From Bryobacterales bacterium (GTDB taxonomy: Bacteria; Acidobacteriota; Terriglobia; Bryobacterales; Bryobacteraceae): DNA of 64,000 bases. A program made the position numbers and the translations under genes. The stretch spans positions 430,989 to 494,988 of the forward strand of contig CAVVZB010000001.1 of assembly GCA_963752695.1 (NCBI GenBank), read 5' to 3'. Below, piece after piece: positions 1 to 38,604 of the stretch. Below the pieces are notes generated by a model that did no database searches, had not been told where the DNA came from, and saw only the letters and a list, made by a program, of their open reading frames with translations. Position 1 is the first letter of the stretch; the number at the start of each line of letters is the position of its first letter.

Positions 1-1757
1 TTTTGGATAGCAACCGTGTCATCGTGCCAGTTCGCTACTGGGGTCGAACTGGTGATGTTGCAGACCGCTCCGAAGTCCCGCACATCGATGACGTCGGAAG
101 CTTTTGCGTTTGCGTTGCGGGGCGTCGCGCCGGTTGGAAGCATCCCGAGGTTGGCGTGATCGTTATTGAGCTGGAATTGACTGCTGGTCAGTGGCACGTT
201 GGTTGGAATTTCTGCCACCTGGAGCTTAGCGTTGCCGTCGAGCGCGGCGTATCCATTGGCAGTGCCCTTATTCAGTTGCGATTCAGGGTTTGACCAAGCG
301 TACCCGGAACCAGTGTTGACGCATGTCAATAGCGCGTTCGGGGTGGTACCGGTGTTCATCCATAATCGCCCGATATGGCTCGCCGTTGTACATCCGGGGC
401 TGGAGGTTTGGCTGGTGAGCTGCACACCGGACGGATTAATCACCAGCCGAGCAGTTGGCGAATAAGCCTGCCCAGCTGTTAGTCCGCTGTCTGCCAGGAA
501 GCTGAATACGCCATTTTGAAATAACAACGAGTTTGCGGCGGGAGCGTTTGCTGTAAAGCTTCCCATATCCGTGGTGACGCCAGCCGATAGCGCCGCCCAC
601 GAGGGGTCGTTCTGATAGCCGTTCCCTATCATGTGAAGACCGCCGGCCGCGAAACCCTGGTTTGTAAGGCCCTGTTTCTGAATGATAAGGCCGTTAACGG
701 ATGTCTCGAAGAGTGCGCCGCCACCGGCGTCCGTTGTTTGAAGCAGGTTTCCAATCGTCAGAGTGGACGTCCCGATGTTTGTGGGAAGGTTCCCGGATGG
801 CAGTCGCCCGGTTGCATCCAGTGGTGCATAGCCGCTCGGCGCGCCCTTGTTGGTGTTGGCTTCGCACGTGGCGCAGGTAACGTCTACCCGGCTCTGCCCG
901 GCATTGGTGGTCGCGGCCAGTGGCCCGGCGAAGTTCAAAGAGTTTTGCGGCGCGACTACTGTTCCGCCGCTTTGAATCCCGATCGTGGAGACTGCCCCCA
1001 TGACATTCCATTTCGTGCTATCGGTACCAGGAATCACGTTTGTGTTGCTGATCACCGCCACATATGTAGATCCGTTGTAAGAAACAGAGTCCAATGCAGA
1101 ATAGGCTGTGGAACCGGACCATGTCCCGCGCGCTTTCAACGCCGGGCCAGTCGCACCTGTGGGTCCCGTGGGGCCTGTCGGTCCCGTAGGCCCGGTAAGT
1201 CCGGCCGGGCCCATCGGTCCGCTCGATCCGTTTGCACCATTAGGGCCCTGCGGTCCAGCCGGGCCTATCGAACCATTTAAACCTGCAGGTCCCGCAGGTC
1301 CAGTGGATCCAGCCGGGCCTTGTGCGCCTGCCGGTCCGGGCGATCCCGCGGCGGCGATTTGCGTCCACTTAGTGCCGTCTGATCCTGGCGTCACTCCAGT
1401 GTTCACGGCGGTTGCCCACCAGGATGATCCTTGGTACGTCACGACATCCAGCGGACTATAAGCTTGCGAAATGTTCCATGGCCCTCGTAAGGTTGGCGAC
1501 TGTCCGCCCGCCCCGCTACCTTGTTTCCAAATCCCAGAGAGGCAGGTAAAAATGTTCCCTGAAGCGAGCGAAAGAACCAAGTTGGTTTTTCCCGGCGACG
1601 GGTTGGTGCAAACTCCCGACGGATCGCTGCTCACCGCGGGCGGAATAAACGCGGCCGCGCTACTAAGATCGAGTTTGCCAAGAATCGTTCGATCGCCGTT
1701 AATCGTGGTCTGTCCCCATGCGGAAGCCGCAATTAGAAACAGCGCTAGTGTCTTCAT
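1..1757 (-). CDS. Secreted collagen-like/tail-fibre-like protein, 3' end outside the window; ends here at the start of a probable right-handed beta-helix (pectate-lyase-3/tailspike-like) domain
   Basis: Translated by hand from ATG 1757 with no stop to position 1. Signal peptide [16 protein letters not shown]; 23 Gly-X-Y triplets (1140-1346); two CBM5/12-like WxxxxxYxxxDxVxYxGSxW/Y repeats flanking the collagen; two NKGxxxGYAxLD repeats; ends [12 protein letters not shown]...DDTVAIQ. Missing from the ORF track because no stop is in the window. Confidence 0.85.
1140..1346 (-). repeat. Collagen triple-helix repeat, 23 uninterrupted G-X-Y triplets
   Basis: [69 protein letters not shown]. Confidence 0.95.
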
Positions 1758-1969
1758 TCGGAAGAGTCCTTTAGTGTCGAAATATCGGGGAGAGTAGGGC
1801 GTGAAAGCGTGCGCAGACTTCAGCCTGGCCCTCTTGAGCACTAGTATGCGGATTCAGGCCAAATCCGGGACAGTCAGGCGCGCCTCTTAGCCGGCCTAAC
1901 TTACTGAAATGTGGAGAGTTCTAACAACGTTGAAACACGCGTGACCCGACTACCATGCACATGTCGCAA

Positions 1970-1986
1970 ACCCGCTTTCGGCAGGT
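1970..1986 (-). terminator. Possible weak terminator hairpin right after the GT-C gene stop
   Basis: Minus strand ACCTGC-CGAAA-GCGGGT followed by only a short T run. Confidence 0.3.
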
Positions 1987-3605
1987 TATTTCGGTAAGTT
2001 CGAGGACACAACGATTTCCGGAGGTAAGCTACCTTGAAACAACGAGATATTTCTTTCGAGCATGGGCTCCACTTCCGGCTCCACGGCCAGGATCTTCACC
2101 GCGTCACCAGCCAGAACGAAGTTGTCGGACAGAGACCAAGTGGCAACCGGCACCCAGGCGAGCGGTATGGCAAATGACTCACCGGCCCACCCGGTGGGAT
2201 ACAAGATCGCCACGCGCGCATGCTCGCGCATAGCCCACTCTCGCAGCCATTCCGTGTTGTATCCGTTCCTCAGCTTTGCGCGCGCCGGCTCCATGCTGCC
2301 CAGCCCGTATACATCCAAAGCGCGTGCGTCCGTGAAGAAACAAACGGCGCCGATGTCGTTCAGCACAATCGTCTCTGTCGGGTAGTACTTCCCTACGAAG
2401 CGCGCCATTTGAAACTGCTGCTCATAAATGTTGTGAAACGCCCGCGGACCGAATGCCATGCTTCGATAACTCTTAAACCCGAGGGTAAGGATGGCAAGCA
2501 CGCCGGCGGCATAACCAACCCCGAACGCCCAGGAACGTGGGCCTAGGGAGAGCGGCTGCAATTGTAAGTCCTGGCTGCCGATGGCGCAGGTGAAGATACC
2601 GGTTGCCACCAAATAGGCTTCATAGCGGTAAAACCATCCTGTGCGCGCCAGTTCCAGATGCAAGAAGCCGATCACAAGGAATTGAATTAGAGCCAGAGAG
2701 GGATAGTTCCAGATCGTCCGGTCTTGCCTCCACCGTAGGTAGAGCAACACAAGCGCCGTCAATAGCAGAAACGCAATATGCGGCGCTTTTACCCCGGCGA
2801 GAGCCCAATTCCATAAAAACCGGAACGCCGGCATCGATACCGAACCGTGCGGAACGTTGGCCTTCAGCAAAATCGAATTGGGCAGCGGCAACCATCCCTC
2901 GCGAACGGATAGCCCGCCGTAGATCGCCAATGGAAGGAACGCGGCCGCTCCTAGCAGCACGGTCGCAAGCCATCGTCGTTGGGCCATTAACATCACACCG
3001 GCGGCAAAGACAAGAAATAGACCTTCGTATCGGGTCATCACAAGAACAGGAGCTAGAACGAACAGCCACTTCATGAAGCCATTAGACGCCCGGTTCATGA
3101 GCGCAAGACACGTCAAATGCACGAATGCAAGAGTGAGAATCGCGTGGAGTACGTGTTCCATCCCGCCTTCTACCACGGCCGGAAGCGGCATAAGAAGAAC
3201 GACCGCAGCGAGAGTGACAAAGATCCTGAAATTGCTCAAACCTGCTTCCTGAAGCAGGCGCTGGGTTAGAGCCAGCAAAGCAATACCCGCACCCAAATTC
3301 AGCAACAGGGGAATGACCTCGTGCACCCCGCTGACCCAGTAGACCCCGGCCAGCAATAGCGTGTAAAGCGGCGACGATGTGGAGGACGAGAAGGCGTAGC
3401 GCGTCACGCCCCAGACTCCATGAAGAGCGAAATTCTTGGCAATCGCCATATGGATATAGGTGTCATCCATCGGATACCCGAAATGGCCGTGACAAAGCTG
3501 CATCGCACGCGCAAACACGGCCGCCACAATCGCCAAAAACAGGGCAACCGAACCGGCCAAACTCGTTACAGCATGAACTCCAGGGGCACGCCCAGGGCGA
3601 GTCAT
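1986..3605 (-). CDS. Polytopic GT-C-fold glycosyltransferase (PMT/arabinofuranosyltransferase-like)
   Basis: 539 aa, many TM helices, acidic MDDTYIH motif in the first loop followed by SSTSSPLY, TRYEG motif, soluble C-terminal domain. Confidence 0.7.
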   Translation of the reverse strand: MTRPGRAPGVHAVTSLAGSVALFLAIVAAVFARAMQLCHGHFGYPMDDTYIHMAIAKNFALHGVWGVTRYAFSSSTSSPLYTLLLAGVYWVSGVHEVIPLLLNLGAGIALLALTQRLLQEAGLSNFRIFVTLAAVVLLMPLPAVVEGGMEHVLHAILTLAFVHLTCLALMNRASNGFMKWLFVLAPVLVMTRYEGLFLVFAAGVMLMAQRRWLATVLLGAAAFLPLAIYGGLSVREGWLPLPNSILLKANVPHGSVSMPAFRFLWNWALAGVKAPHIAFLLLTALVLLYLRWRQDRTIWNYPSLALIQFLVIGFLHLELARTGWFYRYEAYLVATGIFTCAIGSQDLQLQPLSLGPRSWAFGVGYAAGVLAILTLGFKSYRSMAFGPRAFHNIYEQQFQMARFVGKYYPTETIVLNDIGAVCFFTDARALDVYGLGSMEPARAKLRNGYNTEWLREWAMREHARVAILYPTGWAGESFAIPLAWVPVATWSLSDNFVLAGDAVKILAVEPEVEPMLERNISLFQGSLPPEIVVSSNLPK

Positions 3606-3718: not shown

Positions 3719-5249
3719 ATGCTCACCGGCGCTGTGCAACGCCACAGCTGGGTTCTTAAAATCATTCAACCGATCCTGATCGGCTTTCTCGCGCTCGCGA
3801 CAGCGCTCGTTGTCTCGGTAAGAACCGAACTGTCGTTTCTGCTCGTTGAAGTCCTTCTTCTGGTGATCGTCATGGTGGTCTCCAAGGCAGAAGTCCCGAA
3901 GCCCATTGTCGCCTACATCGTCGCCGACCACCTTTGTCAGTTTTTTTAAGCGGTTTATCTTTCTTTGGGCGCCGCAGCCGCTCACGGTCTATTACGCCGT
4001 CCAACTATTGCCTTCTGTCTTCTTGGCTGCAGCGATGCTGGTCATTGTTCGCGCCCTTACCCAAAGCCGAATTACTCTGAGTTCGAAAATGTTCATGGGC
4101 TATGCGGGAGTGGCAATCCTTGCATCGTTGTTGAATGCGAAGGCAGTACCTCTTCAGGCTGGGGTGGGCGGTGCCTATCAAGATTTGATTCTGGTGTGCG
4201 CCATTTTTGCCGGAATGATGGTTCCGCTCAGTATATTCACCAGCTTGGGCCGCGTGTTTGCTGCATTGATTCTCATTTCCGTGCCCTATGGTGTTTATCA
4301 GTTCGCCACCGGACCGACATTCATGGATCGCACATGGGCAGAGGCTCTCCATGACACTTCAATGGAGGCAGCCAAAGTCTACCTGGCAATGACTGTCACC
4401 GGCAGCGAATTCCGCGCCTACTCGTATTACGCGGATCATACAACCTGGGGCCTCTTCCTCGCCTTGGCCGTAATCGCGGTGATCATCTCAGCCACGCTTG
4501 GCATGTTTCCGCGAAGATGGCTCTGGGTAGTGGTTCCGATGGGTATGCTCGGTCTTGTGATTTGCCAGACCCGCACGGCCTGGCTTGGTTTGTTAGGTAC
4601 CTTTGTCGTTTATCGAATCATCACCACGCGCCTGCTGCGACGTCCCATGCTGCTCATCATTGGAGTGCTCTCTTCGTTCGCAGTGGTGGTGACATTAGGA
4701 GACTACGTCACCCGCAACGTCAACGTGGGAGTTTTCTCTAGCGCCCTTCTGACCCGCTACGCCACGGTTGGGACCATGGCGGCTCGGACGTCCGCCTGGA
4801 AGCTCTTCGCCCGAAATCTTCCCGCGCATTGGCTGCTAGGGACTGGTTTCGGATTCGCCACCGCCGAGCGGAACGTCTCCCTGAGCGACGAGGTTTTCTC
4901 TCATAACATGTACGTGGAAATTCTGGTCACTGCCGGCTTGCCTGGACTCCTTCTATTTCTCGGCTTTTTCTATTACTGGATTAAGGAGGCATTCTGGGTC
5001 GCAAGGGTGGGGAGCAGGAACGTCTCGCGCGTGGCTTTGTGGTCGATTTCCTTAGCTGTCGGGATGCTGCTCACAGGAAGCGTGCAAGGCACTAATTTCA
5101 TGAACATCTACCTGTGTCTAATGCTGGGAATCACCAGTGGAGAATGGAGACGGCTGAAGAGCGTGGGCCGGGTTTACGCGCCGCGCCCCGCCAGTCAGTT
5201 CGGGCCCCTGCTTACCCGACCCGCTGCAATCGCGCTCCAAAAAGGTTAG
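3719..5249 (+). pseudogene. O-antigen ligase/Wzy-like membrane protein split by a +1 frameshift in a T7 run (phase-variable, pseudogene or sequencing error)
   Basis: ORF 3719-3949 (hydrophobic N-terminus) stops at TAA just after T7 (3941-3947). Removing one T joins it in frame to ORF 3906-5249 (...ADHLCQFFKRFIFLW...), about 509 aa. C-terminal part has QTRTAW, GTGFG and SHNMYVEILVTAGLPG (Wzy_C-like). Confidence 0.75.
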
Positions 5250-6338: not shown

Positions 6339-7538
6339 TTACCATGTTTCCGGCGGGTAAAACCCCGCCGACGCGCCGACCCAATCCAAATTTCGGTTCT
6401 GGTCGACGCCCATCATCTTTCCGCGGCCTGTACGGATGATCGTGTTCACAGGCTTCAGGCCTCCAGCCGCGCTAAGATACATGACGCGAACTTCGGCTTT
6501 CGCCCACCCCGGCGGAGTATCTATTGTCGCCGCGAAATCAACACGCTCCTGCAAAATATAGTCCCGGCGGCTCGCCTCTGCAATCCGTCCGATGTCTTCC
6601 CGGGTCGGCCCAATTTGAACCCCCAATCCCGCAAATGAGAACAGCGGCTTCAGCACCAACTGCTCCGGCGGTAGTGGCAAGTCCCGCACTTGGTCCAGGA
6701 ACCAAGTTCCAGGCACCGTCTCATGCCGGAACCAGGGTAGTGAAAACTTACTCAGCCGGAAAAACCAGTTCGGATGCCCCGCCCACTCGACATCCAAATC
6801 GTCGCGGAAATCAAAGTTTAGTTGAATGTCCCGCCGGATCAGCTCATCCGCAATCGCCCGATTGTAAATGCGCCGGATCGGCATTCGCTTTCCTTCCATC
6901 AGGTGGAACAGCCGGTTGCCATCTTTACGGACATTTCGGATGTCCACGGTCCGAATGCCGCAAATCCGTTCCGTAATCAGGAAGTCCGCAAGCGTCTTTT
7001 GCTCTTGCGGATCAACTTCAAGCAACACAACTTCATCCGGATCGTGCGCGCCTACAACAACGCTGCGTAATAGTGCTTCGTACCCCGATTCGTCCAGCCC
7101 CCCGAGTAACGTCTCAAGGGTGGAATCCAACTCGTACACCTCGCGATAGGCGTTCGCCAGCATCACCTGAAATCCGTAGAGCGAAGGGAAGCCCTGAATC
7201 TCTACAAGACGCGGCGCCCAATCACCGTTTGCATCCCGGATGATCCCGAAATCAGCTTGCACGAATAACGGCTGCTCGGGACAATTCGGGACATTGAACG
7301 CCGGCGGTATTACCTTTTCGGCCGCTTTCAGATACTCGGCGTTACCTACCAGTTGCGCCACCAATTCTTGTCCGGCCTCGACCATCTTGCGAATCAGATC
7401 GCCGGGGAAAAAGCACGCTGTCTCACTGCACCGGAACTTCACATGCGCGCCACTGCGAATGTCAATCTCTCGAAGAAAACGCGCGTACTTCTCTGGCGTG
7501 AAGCGCGCGTTGAAATCGCGGCGGAGGTCTGCAATCAT
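6339..7538 (-). CDS. Circularly permuted ATP-grasp / glutathionylspermidine-synthase-like amide ligase
   Basis: ADFG...RLVEIQGFPS, LVLKPLFSFAGLGV, YILQERV, EVRVMY motifs; ATG 7538 overlaps upstream TGA (ATGA). Confidence 0.65.
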   Translation of the reverse strand: MIADLRRDFNARFTPEKYARFLREIDIRSGAHVKFRCSETACFFPGDLIRKMVEAGQELVAQLVGNAEYLKAAEKVIPPAFNVPNCPEQPLFVQADFGIIRDANGDWAPRLVEIQGFPSLYGFQVMLANAYREVYELDSTLETLLGGLDESGYEALLRSVVVGAHDPDEVVLLEVDPQEQKTLADFLITERICGIRTVDIRNVRKDGNRLFHLMEGKRMPIRRIYNRAIADELIRRDIQLNFDFRDDLDVEWAGHPNWFFRLSKFSLPWFRHETVPGTWFLDQVRDLPLPPEQLVLKPLFSFAGLGVQIGPTREDIGRIAEASRRDYILQERVDFAATIDTPPGWAKAEVRVMYLSAAGGLKPVNTIIRTGRGKMMGVDQNRNLDWVGASAGFYPPETW

Positions 7539-8563
7539 GCGCCGTCGAACACGAACCGGCCGTGATCCATAATTTGCCGATCGTCCAGCCAAATGCTGAA
7601 TTCCTTGCCCACCACGTCGATGTGCGTCGCCGAATACCAGTCCGCGCCAGTATGAAATCCGTAAGGATTGCCAAACGCGATGTGGACACCCGGGATCTTC
7701 TCGTCTTGCAGAATGTTTCCGATTACACCGGTCAAGCCAACGTTTGTGCCGATGGCAAACTCTCCCACTCGATCGCTATTTTCGTCCGTGTGCGTGTAAT
7801 CCCAGAACTCCTTTTCGAGCTCCCGGTTTGCACTATGGGCTTCCACAAGGCGGTTCTTCTCGATCCGAACTGTCAGAGGCTCCGCTTGTAAATTCCCGTA
7901 CTTGGCGCAGAGGTAATCGCCGACCACTCCGTCAATGACAAAGGTCCCGTTGACTTCTCCTGGCGTCGTAAACGTCTCTCCGCCAGGGAGATTACCCCAC
8001 TTTTGCGGAGAGATGATCCCGCTGGTCTTCACCCAACGATATTCCGGATTCATGTCCGCCACGATATCCGTTCCCGCTGGTGTTGTCGCGCGGATCTTTC
8101 GGGCTGCGCCCGCGTTCTTGCAGATGATTGAACTGATCCGATCCACCTCGAGATAGTCGGCGCGCATTCCTTCCAACATAATCTGCTTGGTGATGTTGAC
8201 CATGTGGGCGTGCCGGATCCCACGCCGATTCACCACATCGGTCATCTGCATGCGCGTCTTCAACTCCCCAAGCTGGGCTTGTACCGCGAAAACGCTCACC
8301 TGGCTCGATTCCATGTCATCCAGAATCACCTGGGGCATGTTATTCAACGGCCGATCGGCATAATCCTCAAGGACAAATGCCTGGTGCCGCGAGCCCAATC
8401 GCTCGAGTTGATTCACAATCGATGCCGCGACTTCCACGGTCGCTCGATCTGTGATCACCGTGGTCTTCTCCGTTTTCTGCACCCTCAGACAAACATTTAC
8501 CGCGTTGTAAGCCCCTGGGGAAAGTTCCGGATCGAAGTGCATGCTACTAAGCGCCCCTTGCAT
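7535..8563 (-). CDS. Aminopeptidase, M29 / leucyl aminopeptidase-like
   Basis: NLPGGETFT, GEFAIGTN, DEKIPGVHIAFG, THID motifs; alternative start ATG 8542. Confidence 0.8.
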   Translation of the reverse strand: MQGALSSMHFDPELSPGAYNAVNVCLRVQKTEKTTVITDRATVEVAASIVNQLERLGSRHQAFVLEDYADRPLNNMPQVILDDMESSQVSVFAVQAQLGELKTRMQMTDVVNRRGIRHAHMVNITKQIMLEGMRADYLEVDRISSIICKNAGAARKIRATTPAGTDIVADMNPEYRWVKTSGIISPQKWGNLPGGETFTTPGEVNGTFVIDGVVGDYLCAKYGNLQAEPLTVRIEKNRLVEAHSANRELEKEFWDYTHTDENSDRVGEFAIGTNVGLTGVIGNILQDEKIPGVHIAFGNPYGFHTGADWYSATHIDVVGKEFSIWLDDRQIMDHGRFVFDGA

Positions 8564-9694
8564 CTAGCTCGCGCCGAGGGCCGCGGCATCGTAAACCCCC
8601 ACCTCAGTTTCCGAAATGATGTAATCCACCACGCGATGGAAGTCGCCGGTCTCCCGGTATACACGCAATTGACGGTCGGCGCCACTGCCGTTTCTCAGAA
8701 TCTGATGGATGTACTCGAGTTCCTTGCGCGAGCCGAGATCGTCCACAACATCATCAACAAACTCCAGGTACTCGTCCATCAATACACGAAGCGGAACTTC
8801 GGACTTCTTACCGAAGTCGATGAGACTTCCATCTAATCCGTAGCGCAGTGCTCGCCATTTATTCTCCATAATGAGTGCGCGCCGGTAGAGCCGAAAGCCT
8901 TGGTTTGCCGAATACAACTTATATAGCTTCGCCACTGTCGCCTGGATCAGAGCCGCGATCGCGATTGTCTCGTCCACCCGCATTGGCACATCGCAGCAGC
9001 GGAATTCCAGCGTGGGGAAGTTGGGGTGGGGCCGAATGTCCCACCAGATCTTCTTCGCGTTATCAATGCAGTTCGTTTTCACCAACAGGCTGACGAAGCT
9101 CTCATACTCGCCGTAGCTCGGAAAATAGTCGGGGATGTTGGTGCGCGGAAACTTGTCAAACACTTTGCACCGATACGATTTCAGCCCCGTATCCATTCCC
9201 AGCCAGAACGGTGAGTTCGTGGATAGCGCCAGAATGTGCGGCACAAAGTAGCGCGCCGCGTTCATGATTTGAATCGCAGTTTCCCGGTCTTCCACACCCA
9301 CGTGAACATGCAATCCAAAAATCAGGTTTGCGCGCGCCACCATCTTTAGATCTTGCACAATGGTGTGATAGCGCTCGTCCGGATAGATCTCCTGATTGCG
9401 CCAGTCCGCGAAGGGGTGGGTTCCCGCCGCCGCCAGCCGCAAGCCATTCTTGCGCGCCAGCTGAATAATTCCATGCCGAAGCTCGGTTACGTCGCTCCGC
9501 GCTTCCTGGATATCACGGCAGATCCCCGTACCCACTTCGACTACCGACTGATGCATCTCCGCCTTCACGCGCTCTTTGAGTAGCAGCTTCCCCTTTTCGA
9601 GAATTTCTGCTTCTAAGTGCGACCGTAGATCGCGCGTGACCGGGTCAATCGTCTGATACTCTTCTTCAATTCCGATTGTGAAGCTGGGTTGCAT
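8564..9694 (-). CDS. ybdK: Carboxylate-amine ligase, GCS2/YbdK family
   Basis: TIGIEEEYQ, VEVGT, FGLHVHVG, WWDIRP, TLEFR, ENKWRA.RYG motifs. Confidence 0.9.
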   Translation of the reverse strand: MQPSFTIGIEEEYQTIDPVTRDLRSHLEAEILEKGKLLLKERVKAEMHQSVVEVGTGICRDIQEARSDVTELRHGIIQLARKNGLRLAAAGTHPFADWRNQEIYPDERYHTIVQDLKMVARANLIFGLHVHVGVEDRETAIQIMNAARYFVPHILALSTNSPFWLGMDTGLKSYRCKVFDKFPRTNIPDYFPSYGEYESFVSLLVKTNCIDNAKKIWWDIRPHPNFPTLEFRCCDVPMRVDETIAIAALIQATVAKLYKLYSANQGFRLYRRALIMENKWRALRYGLDGSLIDFGKKSEVPLRVLMDEYLEFVDDVVDDLGSRKELEYIHQILRNGSGADRQLRVYRETGDFHRVVDYIISETEVGVYDAAALGAS

Positions 9695-9697
9695 GGT

Positions 9698-10630
9698 TCA
9701 CCCCCGTAGAAAAGATGCCCACCGGAGTTCTTTGGCAGGTTCATCGTCGCTGAGTGCCTTCTCAATCGCGAACTTGGCGACTTCCGTTACGATCCACTCG
9801 AAATTTGCCGGCCCAACCGAGTGAATGTCAGCATCCGGCGCCGGGTTCAGGAAATCGATGGCGTACGGCACCCCATCCTGCACGGCGAACTCGACGGTAT
9901 TTAGATCGTAACCGAGCGCCCGGCACAATGTTAGGCTGTCGTCATGCACCCGTTGGAGCAATCGGGGATTCACTGGGGGGCCGTCCAACACGTAGCGTTC
10001 CGCGTGGGGATTCCGCGGATCGTATTGCATGATGTGCACGGCCCGCTGTCCGACCACGTAACACCGGAAGTACTCCTGAAACTCGATTCCCTGCTGAAGC
10101 GTCATGCAGAGATCGCCCGTTTCGTCGTAAGCCGCAAACAGTTCCTGAGGATTGTGAACCTTATAAACGCTCTTCCAACCGCCGCCGCTGTACGGCTTCA
10201 GGAACGCCGGGAATCCAATATATTCGAACACCTCCTCCCAATTCAAAGGGTAGATGAGGTTCCGCATCGATTTGCCGGTGGTCCCCGGCGGGTTAACCTT
10301 GTGAGGCAAAATTACCGTTCGTGGAACCGCCACTCCGATCTTCGACGCTAACGCGTAGTTGAAGAACTTGTCGTCCGCGCCCCACCAGAACGGGTTGTTG
10401 ATAACGAAGGTCCCACTTAACACCGCATTCTTCAGATAAGCCCGGTAAAACGGGATATCGTGCGAAATTCGGTCCACAATTACGCTATACCCCGACGGTT
10501 CGGCCATCCTCACCGCGCCGATATGAATGTGCTCCGCCACCACGTCTTCAATGTTCCATTCATTGATCCGGTCGACCAACGCCCATGGAAACGTGCTCTC
10601 CATCCCGTAGATGATTCCGATTTTTCGCAT
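9698..10630 (-). CDS. RimK-like ATP-grasp protein
   Basis: DRISH, VINNPF..ADDKF, FLKPYSGGGWK, LQQGIEF..YFRCY, EFAVQDGVPYAIDF.NP. Confidence 0.8.
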   Translation of the reverse strand: MRKIGIIYGMESTFPWALVDRINEWNIEDVVAEHIHIGAVRMAEPSGYSVIVDRISHDIPFYRAYLKNAVLSGTFVINNPFWWGADDKFFNYALASKIGVAVPRTVILPHKVNPPGTTGKSMRNLIYPLNWEEVFEYIGFPAFLKPYSGGGWKSVYKVHNPQELFAAYDETGDLCMTLQQGIEFQEYFRCYVVGQRAVHIMQYDPRNPHAERYVLDGPPVNPRLLQRVHDDSLTLCRALGYDLNTVEFAVQDGVPYAIDFLNPAPDADIHSVGPANFEWIVTEVAKFAIEKALSDDEPAKELRWASFLRG

Positions 10631-10637
10631 GCCGACC

Positions 10638-11354
10638 TCAGCCGAAGTACTTCACCGCCATCTGTTGCCAGAACGGCCAATCATGTTTGATACCCGCACC
10701 CCAAACGTCCATCCAGTGCGGGATACTCTTGTTGCCCAATGTGCGCGCCATCCGCCAGTTCTCATCCAAACAAGGGTCCCATTCGGACGTGGCCAGAACG
10801 ATCCGGCTATTCTGCCGGTAACGCTCCAACGTGTGGTGATCGGTCATCCCTTGCACATAATCCGGGGGACAGTTGAAATAACAATTGTCGTCGTAATAAT
10901 GCCCAAGGAACTGGTGAATGTCAAAGGCGCCGCTCATACTCACGCAGTCGCTGAAAACCCACGGTTGTTTGAGCGCGAAGTTCATCGAGAAATATCCACC
11001 GAAGCTGCATCCCGTGGTCCCGAGCCTTGGGTTCTGGTTCTTCGTCCGAATAAGTGGCACCACTTCATTCAGAATGTAGCTCTCATATTGCATGTGGCGC
11101 TGCACACGCTGGGCCGGATGCACATGCCGGTTATACCAGCTTTCGGTATCCACGCTGTCCACGCAAAACGCCTGCATGTGCCCTTGTTCGTATTGCCAGT
11201 GCACGGCGCCGATCATTCCGTTATTCTCATAATCGTAATAACGGCCCCGCGACGATGGGAAGGCGATCAGCGGAAATCCGCCATGCCCGTAAATCATCAG
11301 TTCCATCTCCCGTCCGAGCGACGGGCTCCACCACTTGTGATATTCGCGATGCAT
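10638..11354 (-). CDS. Alpha/beta-hydrolase esterase family protein
   Basis: MHREYHKWWSPSLGREM start, GCSFGG nucleophile elbow, HDWPFW; start moved to ATG 11354, 4 bp after the upstream stop. Confidence 0.85.
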   Translation of the reverse strand: MHREYHKWWSPSLGREMELMIYGHGGFPLIAFPSSRGRYYDYENNGMIGAVHWQYEQGHMQAFCVDSVDTESWYNRHVHPAQRVQRHMQYESYILNEVVPLIRTKNQNPRLGTTGCSFGGYFSMNFALKQPWVFSDCVSMSGAFDIHQFLGHYYDDNCYFNCPPDYVQGMTDHHTLERYRQNSRIVLATSEWDPCLDENWRMARTLGNKSIPHWMDVWGAGIKHDWPFWQQMAVKYFG

Positions 11355-11358
11355 TCGG

Positions 11359-12597
11359 TCAGGGTTGAGAATCGATTTCGAATTTATGTGGCGCAGGCTG
11401 CGCGGCGGCATGCTGCTGCTGCACCAATTCAGCTTCTAACTCGTCCATCGCCTTCATTGCCGTTTCCTTACTGGATGCGCTCACGGCAGCTAGTGGAACC
11501 TGAATTTCACGCCATCGCGCATTATGCGTTTGGGCGTGTTTGCGCGTTAAATCGAGCACTGCGGCCGCCTGCTGCATCATCGGGGTATCCAGCTTCGCAA
11601 GGTTAATTCCGGCGCTCCACTCCTCGCCACTGAAGCTGCCCACGGCGCGCCCATCGATCTTCAACTGCCACTTGCCCGCGTGCAACCCGTCGATCTTCAA
11701 GATTTCCTGGTCCAGAGCCTGTAGAAAATCAGAAGAATTGACCGCCAGCGTCACCAGTGGGTCTTTCCAGTCAATCGGCATTGGCAGCGCCTTCTCCGTT
11801 ACCGTCCAGCTGCCGCCGTTCCAATCCGTGACTTCGGCATTCGTAGACCGATCGATATGATGCGTCCGCATATTCAGCGCCACATCGCTGACCACAGAAG
11901 GTGCGCGCCAGGCTTTCAAAAGCGACTCCGCCATCAGAAGATGACCGGCGGGGCCGGGGTGAATACGGTCGGGAATCAGCTTCTTGGCGGCCGCCGCGTC
12001 GGTCTCACTGGCCTTTTTCAAATCCGCGACTACCGGCGTATTCAGGTCGGCTGTGTCGATCTTGTCCGCTACCGCCAAATCGTGAATGAACTTGGAATAC
12101 CGCTGGAGCACGGCGTTATAACCGCCTTCAAATCGCGGGGGCTGCGTGACGTCATCAAATGGAGAGGGCTGAATGGCCGTGATCCGCGCTTTTGGCAGCG
12201 CGTTCTGAATCACCTCCACAATATGCTGATATCCTTTCTGAAACGTCTCGAAAGTCGCCGGGTCGAAGGCTTTGTATCCACCGTCGTTCATGCCAAGCAT
12301 GATGGTGACAACAGTCGGCTTATAAGCTAAGACATCGCGTTCCAACCGAAGGTCCACCGGTCCGCCCCCGCCGCCGCTCACCCGATCGCCGCCCCACCCC
12401 GAGTGCACGAAAGTGACGTTCTGAGCCGGGAACCGCGTAATGGCAAATGTTTCCGTGAATATCGTGTAGAGACGCTGATCGGTGATGCTATCTCCGTAAA
12501 ACACCACGCGATCGCCATCGCGCAGGTAGAATCCGGACTGTCCCCAGAGTCCGAACGCCGCCAAAAGGAGCAGGGTCAAAGTCTTCGGGAAAACCAT
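11359..12597 (-). CDS. Exported SGNH/GDSL hydrolase
   Basis: Signal peptide; GDSIT, GWGG, GMNDG, DRIHP blocks. Confidence 0.85.
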   Translation of the reverse strand: MVFPKTLTLLLLAAFGLWGQSGFYLRDGDRVVFYGDSITDQRLYTIFTETFAITRFPAQNVTFVHSGWGGDRVSGGGGGPVDLRLERDVLAYKPTVVTIMLGMNDGGYKAFDPATFETFQKGYQHIVEVIQNALPKARITAIQPSPFDDVTQPPRFEGGYNAVLQRYSKFIHDLAVADKIDTADLNTPVVADLKKASETDAAAAKKLIPDRIHPGPAGHLLMAESLLKAWRAPSVVSDVALNMRTHHIDRSTNAEVTDWNGGSWTVTEKALPMPIDWKDPLVTLAVNSSDFLQALDQEILKIDGLHAGKWQLKIDGRAVGSFSGEEWSAGINLAKLDTPMMQQAAAVLDLTRKHAQTHNARWREIQVPLAAVSASSKETAMKAMDELEAELVQQQHAAAQPAPHKFEIDSQP

Positions 12598-13307: not shown

Positions 13308-15467
13308 ATGTCTAAGTTCTTGCTGCCGCTCTTCGCTGTACTCGCCCTTTCCGCCCAGGTAACTCCGGTGCCCGATCGCAAGCTTTGGTATTTGAATACC
13401 GCGACATCCAGCTACGTCGTGGGTATCAATGAGCGCGATCAACTGCAGAACCTTTATTGGGGCGGCCCTTTATCGGGCCAGACGGATTTCGCGACCGCCC
13501 ATTCCACCCCCGAGCGCTCCAGCTTTGACCCTTCCGAAACCCGCACGCGCGAAGAGTATCCCGCGTGGGGCGGAACGCGTTTTAATGAACCCGCTCTGAA
13601 GATCACGCGGGCCGATGGCGACCGGGACCTCGTGCTCATCTACCGGAGTTCCCGGAACACTCCCAACACGCTCGAGATCGAAATGCGCGACAGCCAGGAC
13701 CCCATCTTCGTGACGCTCTTCTATCGCGTCTATCCCGCTCTCGGGATCCTTGAGAAACACGCCCGGATTCGCAACGGCACGCGGGGAGTCTTGCACCTGG
13801 AGAGCGCGCAGTCGAGCGTGTGGTCCATGCCGCCGGGCGATAACTACAACGTCACCTACGTCTCTGGCCGCTGGGCCGCTGAAGACCAACTCACGCGCAC
13901 ACCCATCCATGCTGGCACGAAAGTTATCGAGAGCCGCCGCGGTAACACCAGCCACAATGCCAACCCTTGGTTCATGATCGATGAAAATAACGCCACTGAA
14001 GAAAATGGACGGGTCTGGTTTGGCGCGCTCGGATGGTCGGGCAATTGGAGACTGGCCATTGAACAGACGCCCTACAATCAGGTGCGCGTTACCGGTGGCT
14101 ACAACACCTTCGACTTCGATTACCCGCTCAAACCAGGCGAATCCCTCGACACGCCACCCTTTTACGGAGGCTTTTCCGCCCATGGATTTGGCGGGGCGTC
14201 TCGTACCCTGCATCGCTTTGAACGCGAGGCCATCCTCCCGGGCGGCGTCCAATCCCGCGTGCGCCCCGTGCTGTACAACTCCTGGGAGGCGACCACCTTC
14301 AACGTCGATGAGCCTGGGCAAAAGGCTCTCGCCGCTAAAGCCGCATCCATCGGCGTCGAGCTTTTCGTGATGGACGATGGCTGGTTCGGCAAACGCAATG
14401 ACGACCATGCCGGCCTAGGTGACTGGACCGTAAACAAGCAGAAATTCCCGAATGATCTCCAGCCTCTGATCGCCGAAGTCAATCGCCTAAGAATGGATTT
14501 CGGGCTGTGGGTGGAACCGGAAATGGTCAATCCAAATAGCGAACTCTACCGCGCTCATCCCGATTGGGTGCTGAATTTCCCTGGCCGCCCCAGAAGCGAA
14601 CTCCGCAACCAGCTCGTGCTTAACCTTGCGCGCCCTGACGTGAAAGAGTACATCTTCGGATTTCTCGACCGGCTCGCCACTTCTTACAACATTCGCTATT
14701 TCAAGTGGGATATGAACCGGTCCATGTCGGAGCCGGGTTGGCCGGCTGTCGCCGCAGCAGACCAGAAAAAAGTATGGGTTGAATATGTCCGCAACTACTA
14801 CGAAATCCTGGACCGCATCCGCGCCAAGCACCCAAAGTTGGAGATCGAGTCTTGCTCCGGCGGCGGCGCCCGGATCGACCTAGGCGTGCTTCAACGCGTC
14901 GATGAGGTCTGGGTTTCCGATAACACCGAAGCCTTCGACCGCCTGCATATCCAGGAAGGTTTTAGCTACGCGTATAGCCCCAAGATCATGTCCGCCTGGG
15001 TGACCGACGTGCCTAATATGAACGGCCGCAGCACGCCCCTCCAATACCGGTTCTTAGTGGCAATGCAGGGCGCGCTCGGCATCGGATCGAATCTAAATAA
15101 GTGGGCGGCCGAAGATTTTGAGCTCGCCCGAAAAATGATCGCGCTCGACAAACAAATTCGCTCGACCGTGCAAACTGGCTCGCTCTATCGCCTGCTCTCC
15201 CCTCGCGATCACGACGTTGCCTCGAACGAGTATGTTTCCCAGGACGGCCGACAAGCTGTTGTTTTCGCCTTCCGTCACTCGCAGGAGTTCGACTTGCCCG
15301 CTCCAGCGATCCGGCTACAAGGACTAGACGCCGGCGCGGCGTACAAGATCACCGACCTGCGCGGCCGGGCAAGCGAACACACTGGGGCTTTTCTGATGCA
15401 GCAGGGCTTGGAAGTCAGGCTTGCCGGCGACTACGATAGCGCGCTTCTGACTATCGAACGCCAGTAA
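13308..15467 (+). CDS. Alpha-galactosidase, GH36, with signal peptide
   Basis: YNSWEA, FVMDDGWFG, FGLWVEPE, YFKWDMNR, ESCSGGG motifs; start ATG 13308 (MSKFLLPLFAVLALSAQ). Confidence 0.93.
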   Translation: MSKFLLPLFAVLALSAQVTPVPDRKLWYLNTATSSYVVGINERDQLQNLYWGGPLSGQTDFATAHSTPERSSFDPSETRTREEYPAWGGTRFNEPALKITRADGDRDLVLIYRSSRNTPNTLEIEMRDSQDPIFVTLFYRVYPALGILEKHARIRNGTRGVLHLESAQSSVWSMPPGDNYNVTYVSGRWAAEDQLTRTPIHAGTKVIESRRGNTSHNANPWFMIDENNATEENGRVWFGALGWSGNWRLAIEQTPYNQVRVTGGYNTFDFDYPLKPGESLDTPPFYGGFSAHGFGGASRTLHRFEREAILPGGVQSRVRPVLYNSWEATTFNVDEPGQKALAAKAASIGVELFVMDDGWFGKRNDDHAGLGDWTVNKQKFPNDLQPLIAEVNRLRMDFGLWVEPEMVNPNSELYRAHPDWVLNFPGRPRSELRNQLVLNLARPDVKEYIFGFLDRLATSYNIRYFKWDMNRSMSEPGWPAVAAADQKKVWVEYVRNYYEILDRIRAKHPKLEIESCSGGGARIDLGVLQRVDEVWVSDNTEAFDRLHIQEGFSYAYSPKIMSAWVTDVPNMNGRSTPLQYRFLVAMQGALGIGSNLNKWAAEDFELARKMIALDKQIRSTVQTGSLYRLLSPRDHDVASNEYVSQDGRQAVVFAFRHSQEFDLPAPAIRLQGLDAGAAYKITDLRGRASEHTGAFLMQQGLEVRLAGDYDSALLTIERQ

Positions 15468-35369: not shown

Positions 35370-37202
35370 ATGTGCGGCATCGCGGGGTTCATCGAGGCAG
35401 GTCAGGCGGAATGGGCAGGAAATGCCGTGCGCGCAATGGTATCGGCCCTTCAGCGGCGCGGCCCCGATAGCGAAGGCATCCACGCGTGGGCCGATGCGAC
35501 GCTGGGACACCGGCGTCTTGCGATTCTCGATTTGAGCCCAGCCGGCGCGCAGCCCATGCTCTCCGCGGACGGAACGGTAGGACTGGTCTTCAACGGGTGT
35601 ATCTACAATTTCCGGGAGTTGCGGCGGGAACTCGAGTTATTGGGAATTGCTTTCCACTCGCATTGCGATACCGAGGTGCTTCTCGAAGGCTACCGCGCGT
35701 GGGGCATTCGTGAGCTCACACGCAAGATTCAGGGCATGTTCGCCTTCGCCATCTGGGATGCCCCTCAGGAAAAGCTTTTTCTGGTGCGTGACCGGCTTGG
35801 GGTCAAGCCGCTGGTCTACGCGGCAGCTGGCAACCGCATCGCCTTTGCATCCACCATCGATGCTCTCCGCGCAGCCAAGTTGACCGGCGCGGTCGATGCC
35901 GATGCCGTCTTGCAGTTTCTGGAATTCGGCTTCGTTCTGGATACCTCCAGCATTTTCGAAGGCGTCCAAAAGCTGCCCCCAGCGACCGTTCTGGAGTGGC
36001 AGGGCGGCCGCTTTGAGACGTATACCTATTGGGAACTGCCGGAGCCTTCTGCTGAGGCGGGGAACTTCGAAGACGCGGTGGATCGGACCGAGAGCCTTCT
36101 TGTGGAAGCGGTCCGGATGAGGCTGGTTGCCGATGTGCCGGTTGGGGCGCTATTGAGCGGCGGCATCGATTCCACCTTGATTTGCTGGGCGATGGCGAAG
36201 CTGAACGCGAACATCACGGCATTCACAGTCGCGGCCCCGGGAGACGCCGACGACGAGGCGGGCGCGGCGGCGATGACGGCCCGCGCTTTAGGAATCGATC
36301 ACTGTGTGGTTCCTCTGCCGGAAGCCGCCCCGGTCGTGATCGACAACTTGATTGCGGCCTTTAGCGAGCCGTTCGCCGTACATTCGGCGCTCGGTATGCT
36401 GCTGGTGTCGCAGGCAGTTCGGCCGAGGGCGAAAGTCCTGCTGACCGGCGATGGCGGTGATGACGTTTTCTTAGGCTATCCGTTCCTGCATAACGCGTGG
36501 CGCGCTCAGCGCGTAGCTGGATTGCTCCCGCCAGGTGCGGGAAGCCTCTGGGGAGCCATGCGAGGTTTGGTCCCCTGGCGGCGCGCGCGCAATTTCCTGG
36601 ATTACAGCACCGCCGGTTTGGCGGGACACGCTCAAGCCCACGACGGCCTTCCCTGGTTCGAGGCGCGCGGTCTACTGGGGCCGCAATTGCAGGGCCGGGC
36701 CTTAGCGGCGCGGTCCATGCAGGCGAGTTCCGAATCAGCCAGGAGCCTGCTCTCCGAGGTGCTGCGCTATCACCAGAACACGCATTTCACCAGCGAATTC
36801 CTGCCGAAGGTGGATGGTGGAACCATGTACCACGGGATCGAGGCGCGTTCGCCGTTGCTCGATCAGGCGCTCTGGGAACTGGCGGCTTCGCTTCCGTACA
36901 GCTTGCGCATGCGAGGCGGAGAGTTGAAGGCTGTTTTGCGCGCCATTGTCCGAAAGCGGGTAGGGCCGCAGATCGCCAGCCGCAGGAAACAAGGGTTCTC
37001 CATTCCGCTAGAACGGCGGCTGGCCGGAGCTTGGAAACAGGAACTGAAGTCGCTCACCGGCGTCACACTACTTGAAGAACAAGGATGGCTCTCCGCCGGT
37101 CAACTTCGCAGGGTCGTGGACGAGGCGCAACAGGCGAGCGCGGTGCCCGTTCAGATCTGGCGTCTCCTGGTGCTGGAACGCTGGCTTTGCAGCCGGACTT
37201 AA
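35370..37202 (+). CDS. asnB: Asparagine synthase (glutamine-hydrolysing)-type amidotransferase, probably amidating polysaccharide uronates
   Basis: MCGIAG N-terminal nucleophile, HRRLAILDL, RDRLGVKPL, LSGGIDS, TGDGGDD, RRKQGF. Confidence 0.92.
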   Translation: MCGIAGFIEAGQAEWAGNAVRAMVSALQRRGPDSEGIHAWADATLGHRRLAILDLSPAGAQPMLSADGTVGLVFNGCIYNFRELRRELELLGIAFHSHCDTEVLLEGYRAWGIRELTRKIQGMFAFAIWDAPQEKLFLVRDRLGVKPLVYAAAGNRIAFASTIDALRAAKLTGAVDADAVLQFLEFGFVLDTSSIFEGVQKLPPATVLEWQGGRFETYTYWELPEPSAEAGNFEDAVDRTESLLVEAVRMRLVADVPVGALLSGGIDSTLICWAMAKLNANITAFTVAAPGDADDEAGAAAMTARALGIDHCVVPLPEAAPVVIDNLIAAFSEPFAVHSALGMLLVSQAVRPRAKVLLTGDGGDDVFLGYPFLHNAWRAQRVAGLLPPGAGSLWGAMRGLVPWRRARNFLDYSTAGLAGHAQAHDGLPWFEARGLLGPQLQGRALAARSMQASSESARSLLSEVLRYHQNTHFTSEFLPKVDGGTMYHGIEARSPLLDQALWELAASLPYSLRMRGGELKAVLRAIVRKRVGPQIASRRKQGFSIPLERRLAGAWKQELKSLTGVTLLEEQGWLSAGQLRRVVDEAQQASAVPVQIWRLLVLERWLCSRT

Positions 37203-38473
37203 AACGGTCGTACGATCGTGGCCCCGTAAGTCAGCGTAGGTAGAGCGACGTTGCCGCCGCTGAAATTGCAAACGCGAATTGCGACTACGCCCGCAGCACT
37301 TACCCGCGCCATGCCGAAGAATCCCGCTGGCAAAGCAGGCCATCCTGGTACCACGCTGTCAGTCACTTGCGCGCCCGGCAGGGGAACGGTAAGTTCCCCG
37401 CTGCAAGCAGCCGTGTTCACGGTAGGAAACGTTAGCGGGGCTGAGCCTGCGATGGCCGTTGCTCCCATTCCAACCCCGCCCGAGCCGTTAACCGAACATC
37501 TTCCACTTTGCGGCGTGGCGAATTTGACCGTGACGTTGTACGTGGCCGGATCAATCGTAATCTGGCCCGGTTCAATCAGATTCGCTGGCGCGGCGTTATC
37601 ATAGCAACTCACCAGCAGGTTCGCAGTATTCAGATTGTGCTGGGTGCCCGCAATGGACAGCAAAGTGGTTCCCGTGAATGCCACGCTGTAATTAGGCGGC
37701 ACCTGCAGGGTTGTGGGCGTCCACGTACTATTCGTATTACTCCAACTCAAAAGCTGACCGCTAATCGGCGCGGCGCTGGAAACCGTTCGACCTTGTAAGC
37801 CCGCAACCGTAAGCGCGGCTGGCGCGCCGTTCACGTCGCCTCCAATCGCCACAGGCTCCCAGAAACCGGTCATGCCATTGAACTTGAGGAGTTGCCCATC
37901 GGTGGGGGCGAGCGATGAAACACCGCGGCCCTGCAGACCATTGACAGTCAGAGTCGACGGGTTGCCGTGGACATCGCCCGCCAGTGCGGCCGGCTCCCAA
38001 ACATTGCTGCCCGCGTTGAAGCGAAGCAGCTGGCCGTCTGTGGGTGTCGCCGTCGAAAGAGTTTTCCCGCGAAGCCCGCCGACCGTAAGAGCCGAGGGCG
38101 CGCCGCTCACGTCGCCGCCGATGGCTTGCCACACCGGATTACTCCCGTCCGTGCTCAGCAACTTGCCTGCGTTATTCAGTTCTGTGGGTACGAGACTGGA
38201 CTGCGGCACAGCTCCACCTTGAAGCGCCCAAGTGTTGGCAGCAGCGCAGACATAAAGGTTTTGTCCGGCGGGCGCCGAGCTCAGGAAGAAAAACTCTCCT
38301 TGGCCGCAGCTCGCGGGAAGTGTCGAGCCCATTCGGGCCGGTTTAGTTGCCGTGGCAGCGCTGAAGTCGACGCTCCTGGTCTGATTGCGCAGATCGAGCT
38401 TACTCTGACTGCCAAGCGGCGCCGCGCCTAAAATCAATATTGCGGAGCAACTCCGCATCACTCTTAAGTTCAT
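37199..38473 (-). CDS. Secreted fibre-like protein with three 46-aa repeats, 424 aa
   Basis: Start ATG 38473 (SD-like AGGTAGGG), signal peptide, Cys-pair module, three tandem GDVxG..TVxGLxG..PxxGQLLx(F/W)..WxP repeats, beta-rich C-terminal domains with Cys pairs. Confidence 0.8.
   Translation of the reverse strand: MNLRVMRSCSAILILGAAPLGSQSKLDLRNQTRSVDFSAATATKPARMGSTLPASCGQGEFFFLSSAPAGQNLYVCAAANTWALQGGAVPQSSLVPTELNNAGKLLSTDGSNPVWQAIGGDVSGAPSALTVGGLRGKTLSTATPTDGQLLRFNAGSNVWEPAALAGDVHGNPSTLTVNGLQGRGVSSLAPTDGQLLKFNGMTGFWEPVAIGGDVNGAPAALTVAGLQGRTVSSAAPISGQLLSWSNTNSTWTPTTLQVPPNYSVAFTGTTLLSIAGTQHNLNTANLLVSCYDNAAPANLIEPGQITIDPATYNVTVKFATPQSGRCSVNGSGGVGMGATAIAGSAPLTFPTVNTAACSGELTVPLPGAQVTDSVVPGWPALPAGFFGMARVSAAGVVAIRVCNFSGGNVALPTLTYGATIVRPF
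37706..38119 (-). repeat. Three tandem 138-bp (46-aa) repeats
   Basis: GGDVSGAPSALTVGGLRG... / AGDVHGNPSTLTVNGLQG... / GGDVNGAPAALTVAGLQG... Confidence 0.9.
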
Positions 38474-38604
38474 CGAATCCCTACCTGCCTTTACGAAAGC
38501 AGATAGCGGTGCTCCGCGAGCCCGCCAGGGCACGCAAGTCACTGTAGGAATTCGACAGAAAAAGTTTGCGCCGGGGTGAACGGCCAGACGTCCTAACCCC
38601 GCCT

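Follow-up and report, generated by a model that had tools for sequence, protein, structure and literature searches.

The left edge of the 64,000-nucleotide window analyzed here (C1:430989-494988, the whole stretch of DNA studied, from a Bryobacterales assembly of 3.7 Mb in four contigs) cuts through a large minus-strand gene that occupies C1:427322-432745 and encodes 1807 amino acids (aa). With moderate confidence, and from sequence and predicted structure, we regard the product of this big gene as an exported, domesticated phage receptor-binding protein of 183 kDa, which would, probably as a trimer, de-O-acetylate, and probably cleave, an extracellular glycan. The functional cassettes of the protein are homologous to bona fide phage tail proteins, and the gene itself belongs to the core genome of its lineage rather than to a prophage.

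Only the 5′ part of the gene lies in the window, where it appears as an open frame (3..1841) that leaves the left edge with its 3′ end open. The start codon is the ATG at 1757, where the orthologs also begin (MKT/MKK...), and there are exactly 585 codons from it to the window edge. The in-window part (3..1757, minus strand), established from an open reading frame (ORF) listing allowing open ends, extension into the genome and full-length orthologs, corresponds to codons 1–585, and the remaining 1222 codons lie to the left of the window at C1:427322-430988 (L001 14577-18243), with no stop directly past position 1, the finding that the initial annotation had named as one that would speak against it. 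The initial annotation had reported a frame of more than 585 codons that was missing from the ORF track. Both statements are correct, and the omission has a trivial cause, because the frame runs off the window edge and such frames are displayed only when open ends are allowed. All the sequence features that it had listed are present at their places, and its observation is confirmed in every detail checked; its interpretation was largely right, with an architecture that was incomplete and a gene neighborhood that was over-read. A Shine-Dalgarno-like AAGGA (1767..1771, minus strand) is found 9 nt 5′ of the ATG, and neither a sigma-70-like promoter nor a terminator was found in the region upstream of the gene. 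The mature protein has a pI of 5.3, and the GC content of the gene is 56.4%, compared with 58.2% for the genome.

Two Cassettes Related to Phage Tail Proteins

The first cassette is of the tailspike type and consists of a right-handed parallel beta-helix (aa 556–890) followed by a C-terminal module of about 160 aa (module 2, aa 891–1055, left of the window, minus strand). The window contains the beginning of the helix (aa 556–585; 3..92, minus strand), with the cap motif DVRDFGAVC...DDTVAIQ at aa 557–585. In an AlphaFold2 monomer model computed from an 18-row alignment, residues 556–880 form the helix, cap included, with predicted local distance difference test (pLDDT) values of 80–94. Foldseek comparisons of this part with the PDB retrieved GH55 glucanases, PfbA (rank 2), AlgE4, the CBA120, HK620 and Sf6 tailspikes, and RbmB, with E-values from 6e-8 downwards in rank and a probability of 1.0 for beta-helix enzymes and tailspikes, and its best matches in BFVD were phage “pectate lyase superfamily” and tailspike proteins (best E-value 2e-11). 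Precomputed matches to PF12708 (Pect-lyase_RHGA_epim, formerly Pectate_lyase_3) exist for the orthologs P0006 and P0008, and the more distant relatives P0050-53, P0056, and P0057 score 33–54 bits with this family. A true beta-helix behind the DFGAV...DDTVAIQ cap, as had been predicted from the motif, is supported by AlphaFold2 and Foldseek, the PF12708 score of the query lying just under its cut-off. It is not the distal head that it had been taken for, since 917 residues follow it. Six residues, E704, G720, N730, H791, E793, and D855, are kept even in relatives found at E-values of about 1e-10 to 1e-60, and E704, H791, E793, and D855 are candidate active-site residues of the helix.

A profile of this helix and module 2 retrieved only 294 matches among 1.84 billion representative proteins. 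The best relatives from outside the family are proteins of 541–670 aa in which an N-terminal adaptor precedes the helix and module 2, and two of them have a phage context: P0054 ends a tightly packed module that opens with a Mu-gpT-like major head protein and contains tail proteins, and P0050 follows a DNA-ejection gene and itself matches tailspike PHROGs. A tblastn search with the beta-helix and module 2 gave no match in 50,697 deposited phage genomes, and scans of IMG/VR gave short or weak matches only (to the J2 Cys-pair module and the helix cap). Module 2 is followed by two linker units (aa 1056–1278, left of the window, minus strand), which, by comparison of Cys-pair modules (see below), end in the fourth copy of this module. 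Neither PHROGs nor NCBIfam yielded a match for the beta-helix, module 2 or the linkers.

The second, distal cassette lies entirely to the left of the window, on the minus strand, and comprises a Cys-rich Laminin_G_3-like (LamG-like) domain (aa 1279–1500), an SGNH esterase (aa 1501–1705), and a small beta-sandwich domain (aa 1706–1807) recognized with Foldseek. Membership of the esterase in the SGNH family is supported by its Lipase_GDSL_2 score (PF13472; 41.7 bits for a cut-off of 32.9) and by its catalytic motifs: S1519 (GDSIT), G1548, N1584 (GTND), D1680, and H1683 (DGIHP) are invariant across 14 family members. The model of this part (pLDDT 60–79) matches CE3 enzymes, acetyl-xylan esterases, TesA, PatB, and Ape1, while the sandwich matches tailspike domains in 24qj and 7rfv; structural matches of the last 85 residues (pLDDT 75–90) are a tailspike domain of Acinetobacter phage Solidus and the N-terminal region of CBA120 TSP4. 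The LamG-like assignment comes from the orthologs, five of eight of which match Laminin_G_3 (PF13385; best E-value 1.2e-4); the query itself does not, and its AlphaFold2 model is unreliable in this region. PDB sequence searches with the family profile and with a LamG-like profile gave nothing useful, and a homolog search with the latter returned only fragments of the big-protein family.

The whole distal cassette is homologous to parts of a phage protein. Tunturi_5, a cultured jumbo myovirus of the acidobacterium Tunturiibacter (PMC11924767), encodes gp342, a “tail fiber protein” with two tandem cassettes of LamG-like, SGNH, and small domains (L025 4270-7830). Each of them is 27–29% identical over about 500 aa to residues 1283–1787 of the big protein (E-values 4e-29 and 5e-26) and retains the SGNH motifs. 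The esterase of gp342 goes unmentioned in the paper that describes Tunturi_5 (PMC11924767). The last domain alone is 34–48% identical to minor tail, tail spike, and “T7 tail fiber” proteins of Gordonia, Arthrobacter, Thermocrinis, Halorubrum, and E. coli phages. The idea that the protein is built of phage-fiber-type parts is therefore borne out by homology as well as by fold.

Conservation differs between the two ends of the protein. The LamG-like and SGNH domains are its most conserved parts (67–91% identity to orthologs), the helix and module 2 being less so (35–78%). Phage receptor-binding proteins usually vary most at their distal tips, and a conserved distal end on a variable stalk is the reverse of this pattern. 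Because the distal domains are conserved and the stalk is variable, we suggest that the substrate is constant and that the stalk acts as a spacer. For the same reason, namely, that the C-terminal LamG-like and SGNH domains are the most conserved, de-O-acetylation would be at least as likely as depolymerization to be the core activity.

A Core Gene of One Bryobacteraceae Genus

Searches with the profile of the helix and module 2 found the gene intact in all eight genomes of the GTDB genus to which the window belongs (Bryobacteraceae), as open frames of 1422–1839 aa. The 53 genomes searched from 42 further genera of this family and order all lack it. It is single-copy, without a paralog in the genome. 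The full-length orthologs (1754–1811 aa, 54–74% identity) come from independent Bryobacterales/Bryobacteraceae metagenome-assembled genomes (MAGs) from bogs and soils. One genus member carries an additional 463-aa ORF (G003:C1:632800-633528), which matches only the beta-helix part of the profile (E-value 8e-16).

The chromosomal surroundings are equally those of a host gene. To the left of the big gene are genes for a hybrid histidine kinase, a ComM/Mg-chelatase-like ATPase, a STELLO-like glycosyltransferase, a GSDH-like protein, and a TIG-domain protein, and an RND efflux operon; to the right are those of a 539-aa membrane protein and a Wzy_C-like protein, infC, a six-gene ligase/peptidase/esterase operon, and a GH36 gene. 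No phage genes were found within 18 kb to the left or 15 kb to the right, a tyrosine recombinase is encountered only at a distance of more than 337 kb, and no HK97-type capsid is encoded anywhere in the genome. Synteny with infC and with the operon beyond it is conserved in the orthologous loci. These clean flanks agree with the initial annotation, which had described the gene as host-encoded and had named structural phage genes immediately to the left as the finding that would speak for a simple prophage tail gene; the left 18 kb has none, and the big gene is not part of a phage structural module.

The same annotation had placed the gene beside surface-glycan genes. This is true of the present genome and of locus L002, and does not extend to the four other loci with an upstream flank, L003, L004, L005, and L007, in which infC directly abuts the big gene. 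Because the adjacency to glycan genes is not conserved, the neighbors lend weak support to a role in the processing of the cell's own extracellular polysaccharide (EPS).

Leader, Stalk, and N-Terminal Modules

The protein begins with a Sec-type signal peptide (aa 1–16; 1710..1757, minus strand), recognized by its sequence features, namely, a lysine at position 2, an 11-residue hydrophobic core, and small residues at −3 and −1, with cleavage predicted before Q. The AWGQ sequence at its end is invariant in all full-length orthologs, which also speaks for the leader claimed initially. Inspection of the leader sequence showed neither a twin-arginine motif nor a lipobox Cys.

Leader-like N-termini of this kind are also found on proteins of the phage-context group: sequences such as MRTLYSLLFICAGLAGL..ALAQ are present in three tailspike-like homologs (L015 6828-8792, L016 4967-6979, and L009 4438-6378), which are encoded within phage structural modules or on contigs classified as viral. 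Sec-type leaders are odd for virion proteins, which assemble in the cytoplasm. Tailspike proteins with Sec leaders, in both host and phage contexts, may possibly represent an undescribed class of exported enzymatic fibers in Acidobacteriota.

The leader is followed by a succession of small modules, all on the minus strand. The first (aa 36–80; 1518..1652) contains the Cys pair C50...C72...W76 and was delimited from the sequence and with a hidden Markov model (HMM); it is present in four copies in the protein (aa 36–80, 441–492, 1004–1055, and 1231–1278). Then comes a collagen-like segment of 23 uninterrupted G-X-Y triplets (aa 138–206; 1140..1346), flanked by two CBM5/12-like modules, a (aa 89–137; 1347..1493) and b (aa 207–254; 996..1139). 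The collagen assignment relies on the triplet count and on the Pfam Collagen family (PF01391; 45.7 bits for a cut-off of 27.2), and, as a triple helix, the segment would measure about 20 nm. The aromatic signature of CBM5/12 (W..Y..V.Y.G..W/Y.A...P...W) is visible in both flanking modules; module a is 52% identical to module b and covered by phrog_5073, and module b has a subthreshold match to Pfam CBM_5_12. Related collagen/CBM arrays in P0015-P0019 score 57–145 bits with this family. The stalk parts also have phage relatives: the region made of the two CBM modules and collagen matches many tail-fiber PHROGs, including phrog_5073 (module a and collagen; E-value 9e-37), and module b is 39–47% identical to tail-fiber and tail-assembly proteins of deposited phages.

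Downstream of the stalk are a fiber-type linker (aa 255–332; 762..995), which matches the minor tail protein family phrog_13892 (E-value 1e-8) and to which, as an internal repeat of the protein, a unit at about aa 1113–1170 is related; module 1 (aa 333–492; 282..761), 52% identical to module 2, which lies beyond the beta-helix, and found in four of the eight genomes of the genus; and a second linker (aa 493–555; 93..281), which leads to the helix. NKG...GYA.LD repeats occur at aa 303 and, in this second linker, at aa 496. The Cys pair, the two CBM5/12-like repeats, the 23 triplets, and the two NKGxxxGYAxLD repeats are all features that had been read from the sequence initially.

The N-terminal stalk is indel-rich, and its collagen varies across orthologs from a few triplets (4–5) to about 40. 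The DNA of the collagen segment showed no repeat prone to slippage, and for this reason the idea that slippage produces phase or length variation was dropped. A role of the Cys-pair module in docking was considered as well. The window encodes a second secreted fiber-like protein (37199-38608, minus strand), which has a close paralog at C3:535054-536055 (plus strand); both carry a Cys-pair module (P..C-x18-22-C..W) directly after their leaders, and in this genome the Cys-pair HMM matches only these two proteins and the big protein. We nevertheless rejected a shared N-terminal docking module: because the Cys-pair module is also found at the ends of internal modules and at the C-termini of phage homologs, it is a general small structural unit rather than a specific anchor.

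Proposed Function and Alternatives

These features can be assembled into a model, which we favor with the moderate confidence expressed above. The protein would be exported by Sec and cleaved after AWG. Three chains would then associate, probably through the collagen segment and the tailspike unit, the 23 triplets between the CBM5/12-like modules giving the long stalk. Along this fiber would be displayed the two cassettes, whose phage derivation is indicated by homology: the tailspike cassette, with its beta-helix and C-terminal module, and the distal cassette, with its lectin-like Laminin_G_3 domain, an SGNH esterase with an intact Ser-Gly-Asn-Asp/His set, and the sandwich. The fiber would bind an O-acetylated extracellular polysaccharide, remove its acetyl groups, and probably cleave its backbone. 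Because the phage homologs act on bacterial surface or matrix glycans, such a glycan, the cell's own or that of a neighbor, is the most likely target. After its acquisition, the gene would have become a core gene of the genus.

Several points weigh against this model. The direction of transfer, from phage to host, is inferred from distribution only. Two of the family assignments fall under their cut-offs, as PF12708 scores 26.7 bits on the query (E-value 5.8e-6), just below 27 bits, and CBM_5_12 scores 23 bits on module b, below 26.2 bits, with no Pfam match for module a. Module 2, the linkers, and the LamG-like region are poorly modeled by AlphaFold2, with pLDDT values under 50. The Wzy_C-like and membrane-protein genes adjoin the big gene in only two of six loci, this one and L002. 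Tailspike-like homologs encoded in phage structural modules also bear Sec-like leaders (P0050, P0051, P0055, a 646-aa protein of L009, and P0054 if read from an upstream ATG); because of this, a leader alone is no proof of host use or of domestication, and host use of the big gene is deduced from its chromosomal conservation instead. Finally, neither an outer-membrane route nor an anchor was found for the big protein, and, as Sec carries proteins of a diderm no further than the periplasm, the protein could be located there.

The alternative that best survives is nutritional. The protein may be a carbohydrate-active enzyme (CAZyme), displayed or secreted, that de-acetylates and cleaves environmental plant, moss, or fungal polymers in peat, such as acetylated pectin, sphagnan, xylan, or chitin, the CBM5/12-like and LamG domains serving as substrate anchors. 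All the genomes are indeed bog or soil MAGs, PF12708 describes a helix of the rhamnogalacturonase/epimerase type, Foldseek matches include GH55, GH28, CE3, acetyl-xylan esterases, and rhamnogalacturonan acetylesterase, and the conserved neighborhood contains a GH36 gene and a further SGNH gene. A constant substrate would also be in agreement with the genus-wide conservation of the distal domains. However, both cassettes are closest in sequence to phage tail proteins and not to characterized CAZymes, collagen and phage-linker modules are unusual in CAZymes, and the gene lies outside any polysaccharide-utilization locus. We therefore consider a nutritional role unlikely, if still worth serious attention.

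A different use of a phage-derived fiber can also be imagined, in which the host has turned a receptor-destroying protein on phages or competitors. As an exported homolog of the deacetylase/depolymerase cassettes by which acidobacterial phages recognize their hosts, it would constantly strip or trim the acetylated surface glycan that serves as a phage receptor, and thus provide a constitutive, genus-wide receptor-editing defense, or it would trim the capsules of neighbors. We put this forward as a speculative idea with a rather small chance of being correct.

It is also improbable that the protein is a noncatalytic surface adhesin whose helix and lectin-like modules merely bind, like collagen-like adhesins and PfbA. 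PfbA does rank second among the Foldseek matches, there are several putative carbohydrate-binding modules, and partial NCBIfam matches to the collagen-like adhesins Lcl and Scl were obtained. The latter, however, cover the collagen repeats only and score 37–46 bits, far under cut-offs of 325–500; the full SGNH catalytic set is invariant, and the Glu, His, and Asp residues of the helix are kept out to distant relatives. As for a prophage tail gene or a decaying prophage remnant devoid of host function, all modules do have phage relatives, but flanks without phage genes, frames intact throughout the genus, conserved chromosomal synteny, and invariant catalytic residues already largely refute it and make it very improbable indeed.

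Neighboring Genes and Other Observations

The 539-aa multi-pass membrane protein (window 1986-3605, minus strand) is encoded 228 bp upstream of the big gene and in the same orientation. It has no Pfam or NCBIfam match and is common only to L002. Its N-terminal “PMDDTYIH” loop is, we presume, reminiscent of GT-C glycosyltransferases, and the protein could glycosylate the Thr-rich collagen stalk. Next to it, the Wzy_C/O-antigen-ligase-like gene (window 3906-5249, plus strand; PF04932, 47.9 bits), which has a TTG start and is preceded by a 76-aa ORF just upstream, is likewise present only here and in L002. The operon beyond infC (window 6339-12597, minus strand) encodes an SGNH hydrolase, a RimK-like ATP-grasp protein, a GCS2 ligase, an M29-like peptidase, and the products of unassigned genes, and keeps its synteny with the big gene wherever the upstream flank of a locus is available.

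Two of the orthologous loci, L006 and L007, are titled “Nevskia soli” and “uncultured Gammaproteobacteria” yet carry the ortholog. The neighbors of the gene in L007 are 64–89% identical to, and syntenic with, those of the present Bryobacteraceae genome, and both contigs are probably mis-binned or mislabeled. The L007 ortholog (P0009) is frameshifted near its 3′ end (about 14470-14837), which garbles its last domain, through either an assembly error or a real lesion.

Comparison with Known Systems

To our knowledge, only a handful of tailspike-fold enzymes encoded by hosts have been described, WceF and RbmB among them. The nearest precedent for the big protein appears to be WceF of Pantoea stewartii, a host-encoded, Tat-exported, trimeric tailspike-fold hydrolase of the bacterium's own EPS, which its authors suggest was acquired from phages (PMC7949094). 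Both proteins are host-encoded and combine a signal peptide with a tailspike-like right-handed beta-helix, a likeness judged from fold and description. WceF, however, has 736 aa and a Tat signal, is encoded inside an EPS synthesis cluster, and lacks collagen, CBM5/12, LamG, and SGNH parts, whereas the big protein has 1807 aa and a Sec-type leader, and its gene is not located within a host EPS biosynthesis cluster and lies, in most genomes, outside glycan clusters altogether. RbmB of Vibrio cholerae is another secreted, host-encoded beta-helix enzyme, a VPS lyase which cleaves the cell's own matrix polysaccharide (PMC11637428, PMC12993940) and is among our Foldseek matches; it differs in being a single-domain lyase of about 360 aa without fiber modules.

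On the phage side, gp342 of Tunturi_5 (PP885688.1) shares a homologous LamG-like-SGNH-sandwich cassette and an acidobacterial host. It is encoded by a jumbo myovirus, beside another annotated tail fiber gene and near a gene annotated as coding for a virion structural protein, has its cassette in two tandem copies, and shows no match to the collagen or beta-helix parts of the big protein. With tailspike depolymerases of the pectate-lyase-3 type (HK620, Sf6, CBA120 TSP2, and proteins of uncultured phages) the big protein has in common the fold and the DFGA...DD..AIQ cap; unlike them, it is not virion-associated, and its N-terminus consists of a leader and a collagen stalk instead of a particle-binding adaptor. 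A fiber or spike scaffold bearing an SGNH esterase that acts on surface polysaccharide is also reported for Acinetobacter phage Aristophanes (PMC8471582), Pectobacterium phage Possum (PMC9569702), and the epsilon15 tailspike esterase (bioRxiv 10.64898/2026.07.31.742079), with which we compare the big protein by description only. Unlike it, these three are, according to the same accounts, phage structural proteins.

Bacterial collagen-like surface proteins (Scl1/2, Lcl, and BclA) resemble the big protein in having a leader followed by a Gly-X-Y stalk, and its GPT-rich repeats are, as we see them, similar to those of BclA; they differ by their LPXTG or other anchors and by their nonenzymatic heads.

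In the big gene, a whole multi-cassette phage fiber has apparently been taken over, equipped with a leader for export, and established in the core genome of a genus that belongs to the abundant and poorly studied Acidobacteriota of peat and soil. If active, the protein would offer a compact case of receptor-binding proteins that passed from phage to host and were domesticated there. It would then also open a way to study the surface glycans of a lineage without cultured members and could supply new glycan esterases and depolymerases. The cassette shared with Tunturi_5 links a cultured acidobacterial phage to host genes and could help to identify phage receptors in the phylum. Set beside these systems, the big protein is an unusual variant of a known theme and not a new kind of system.

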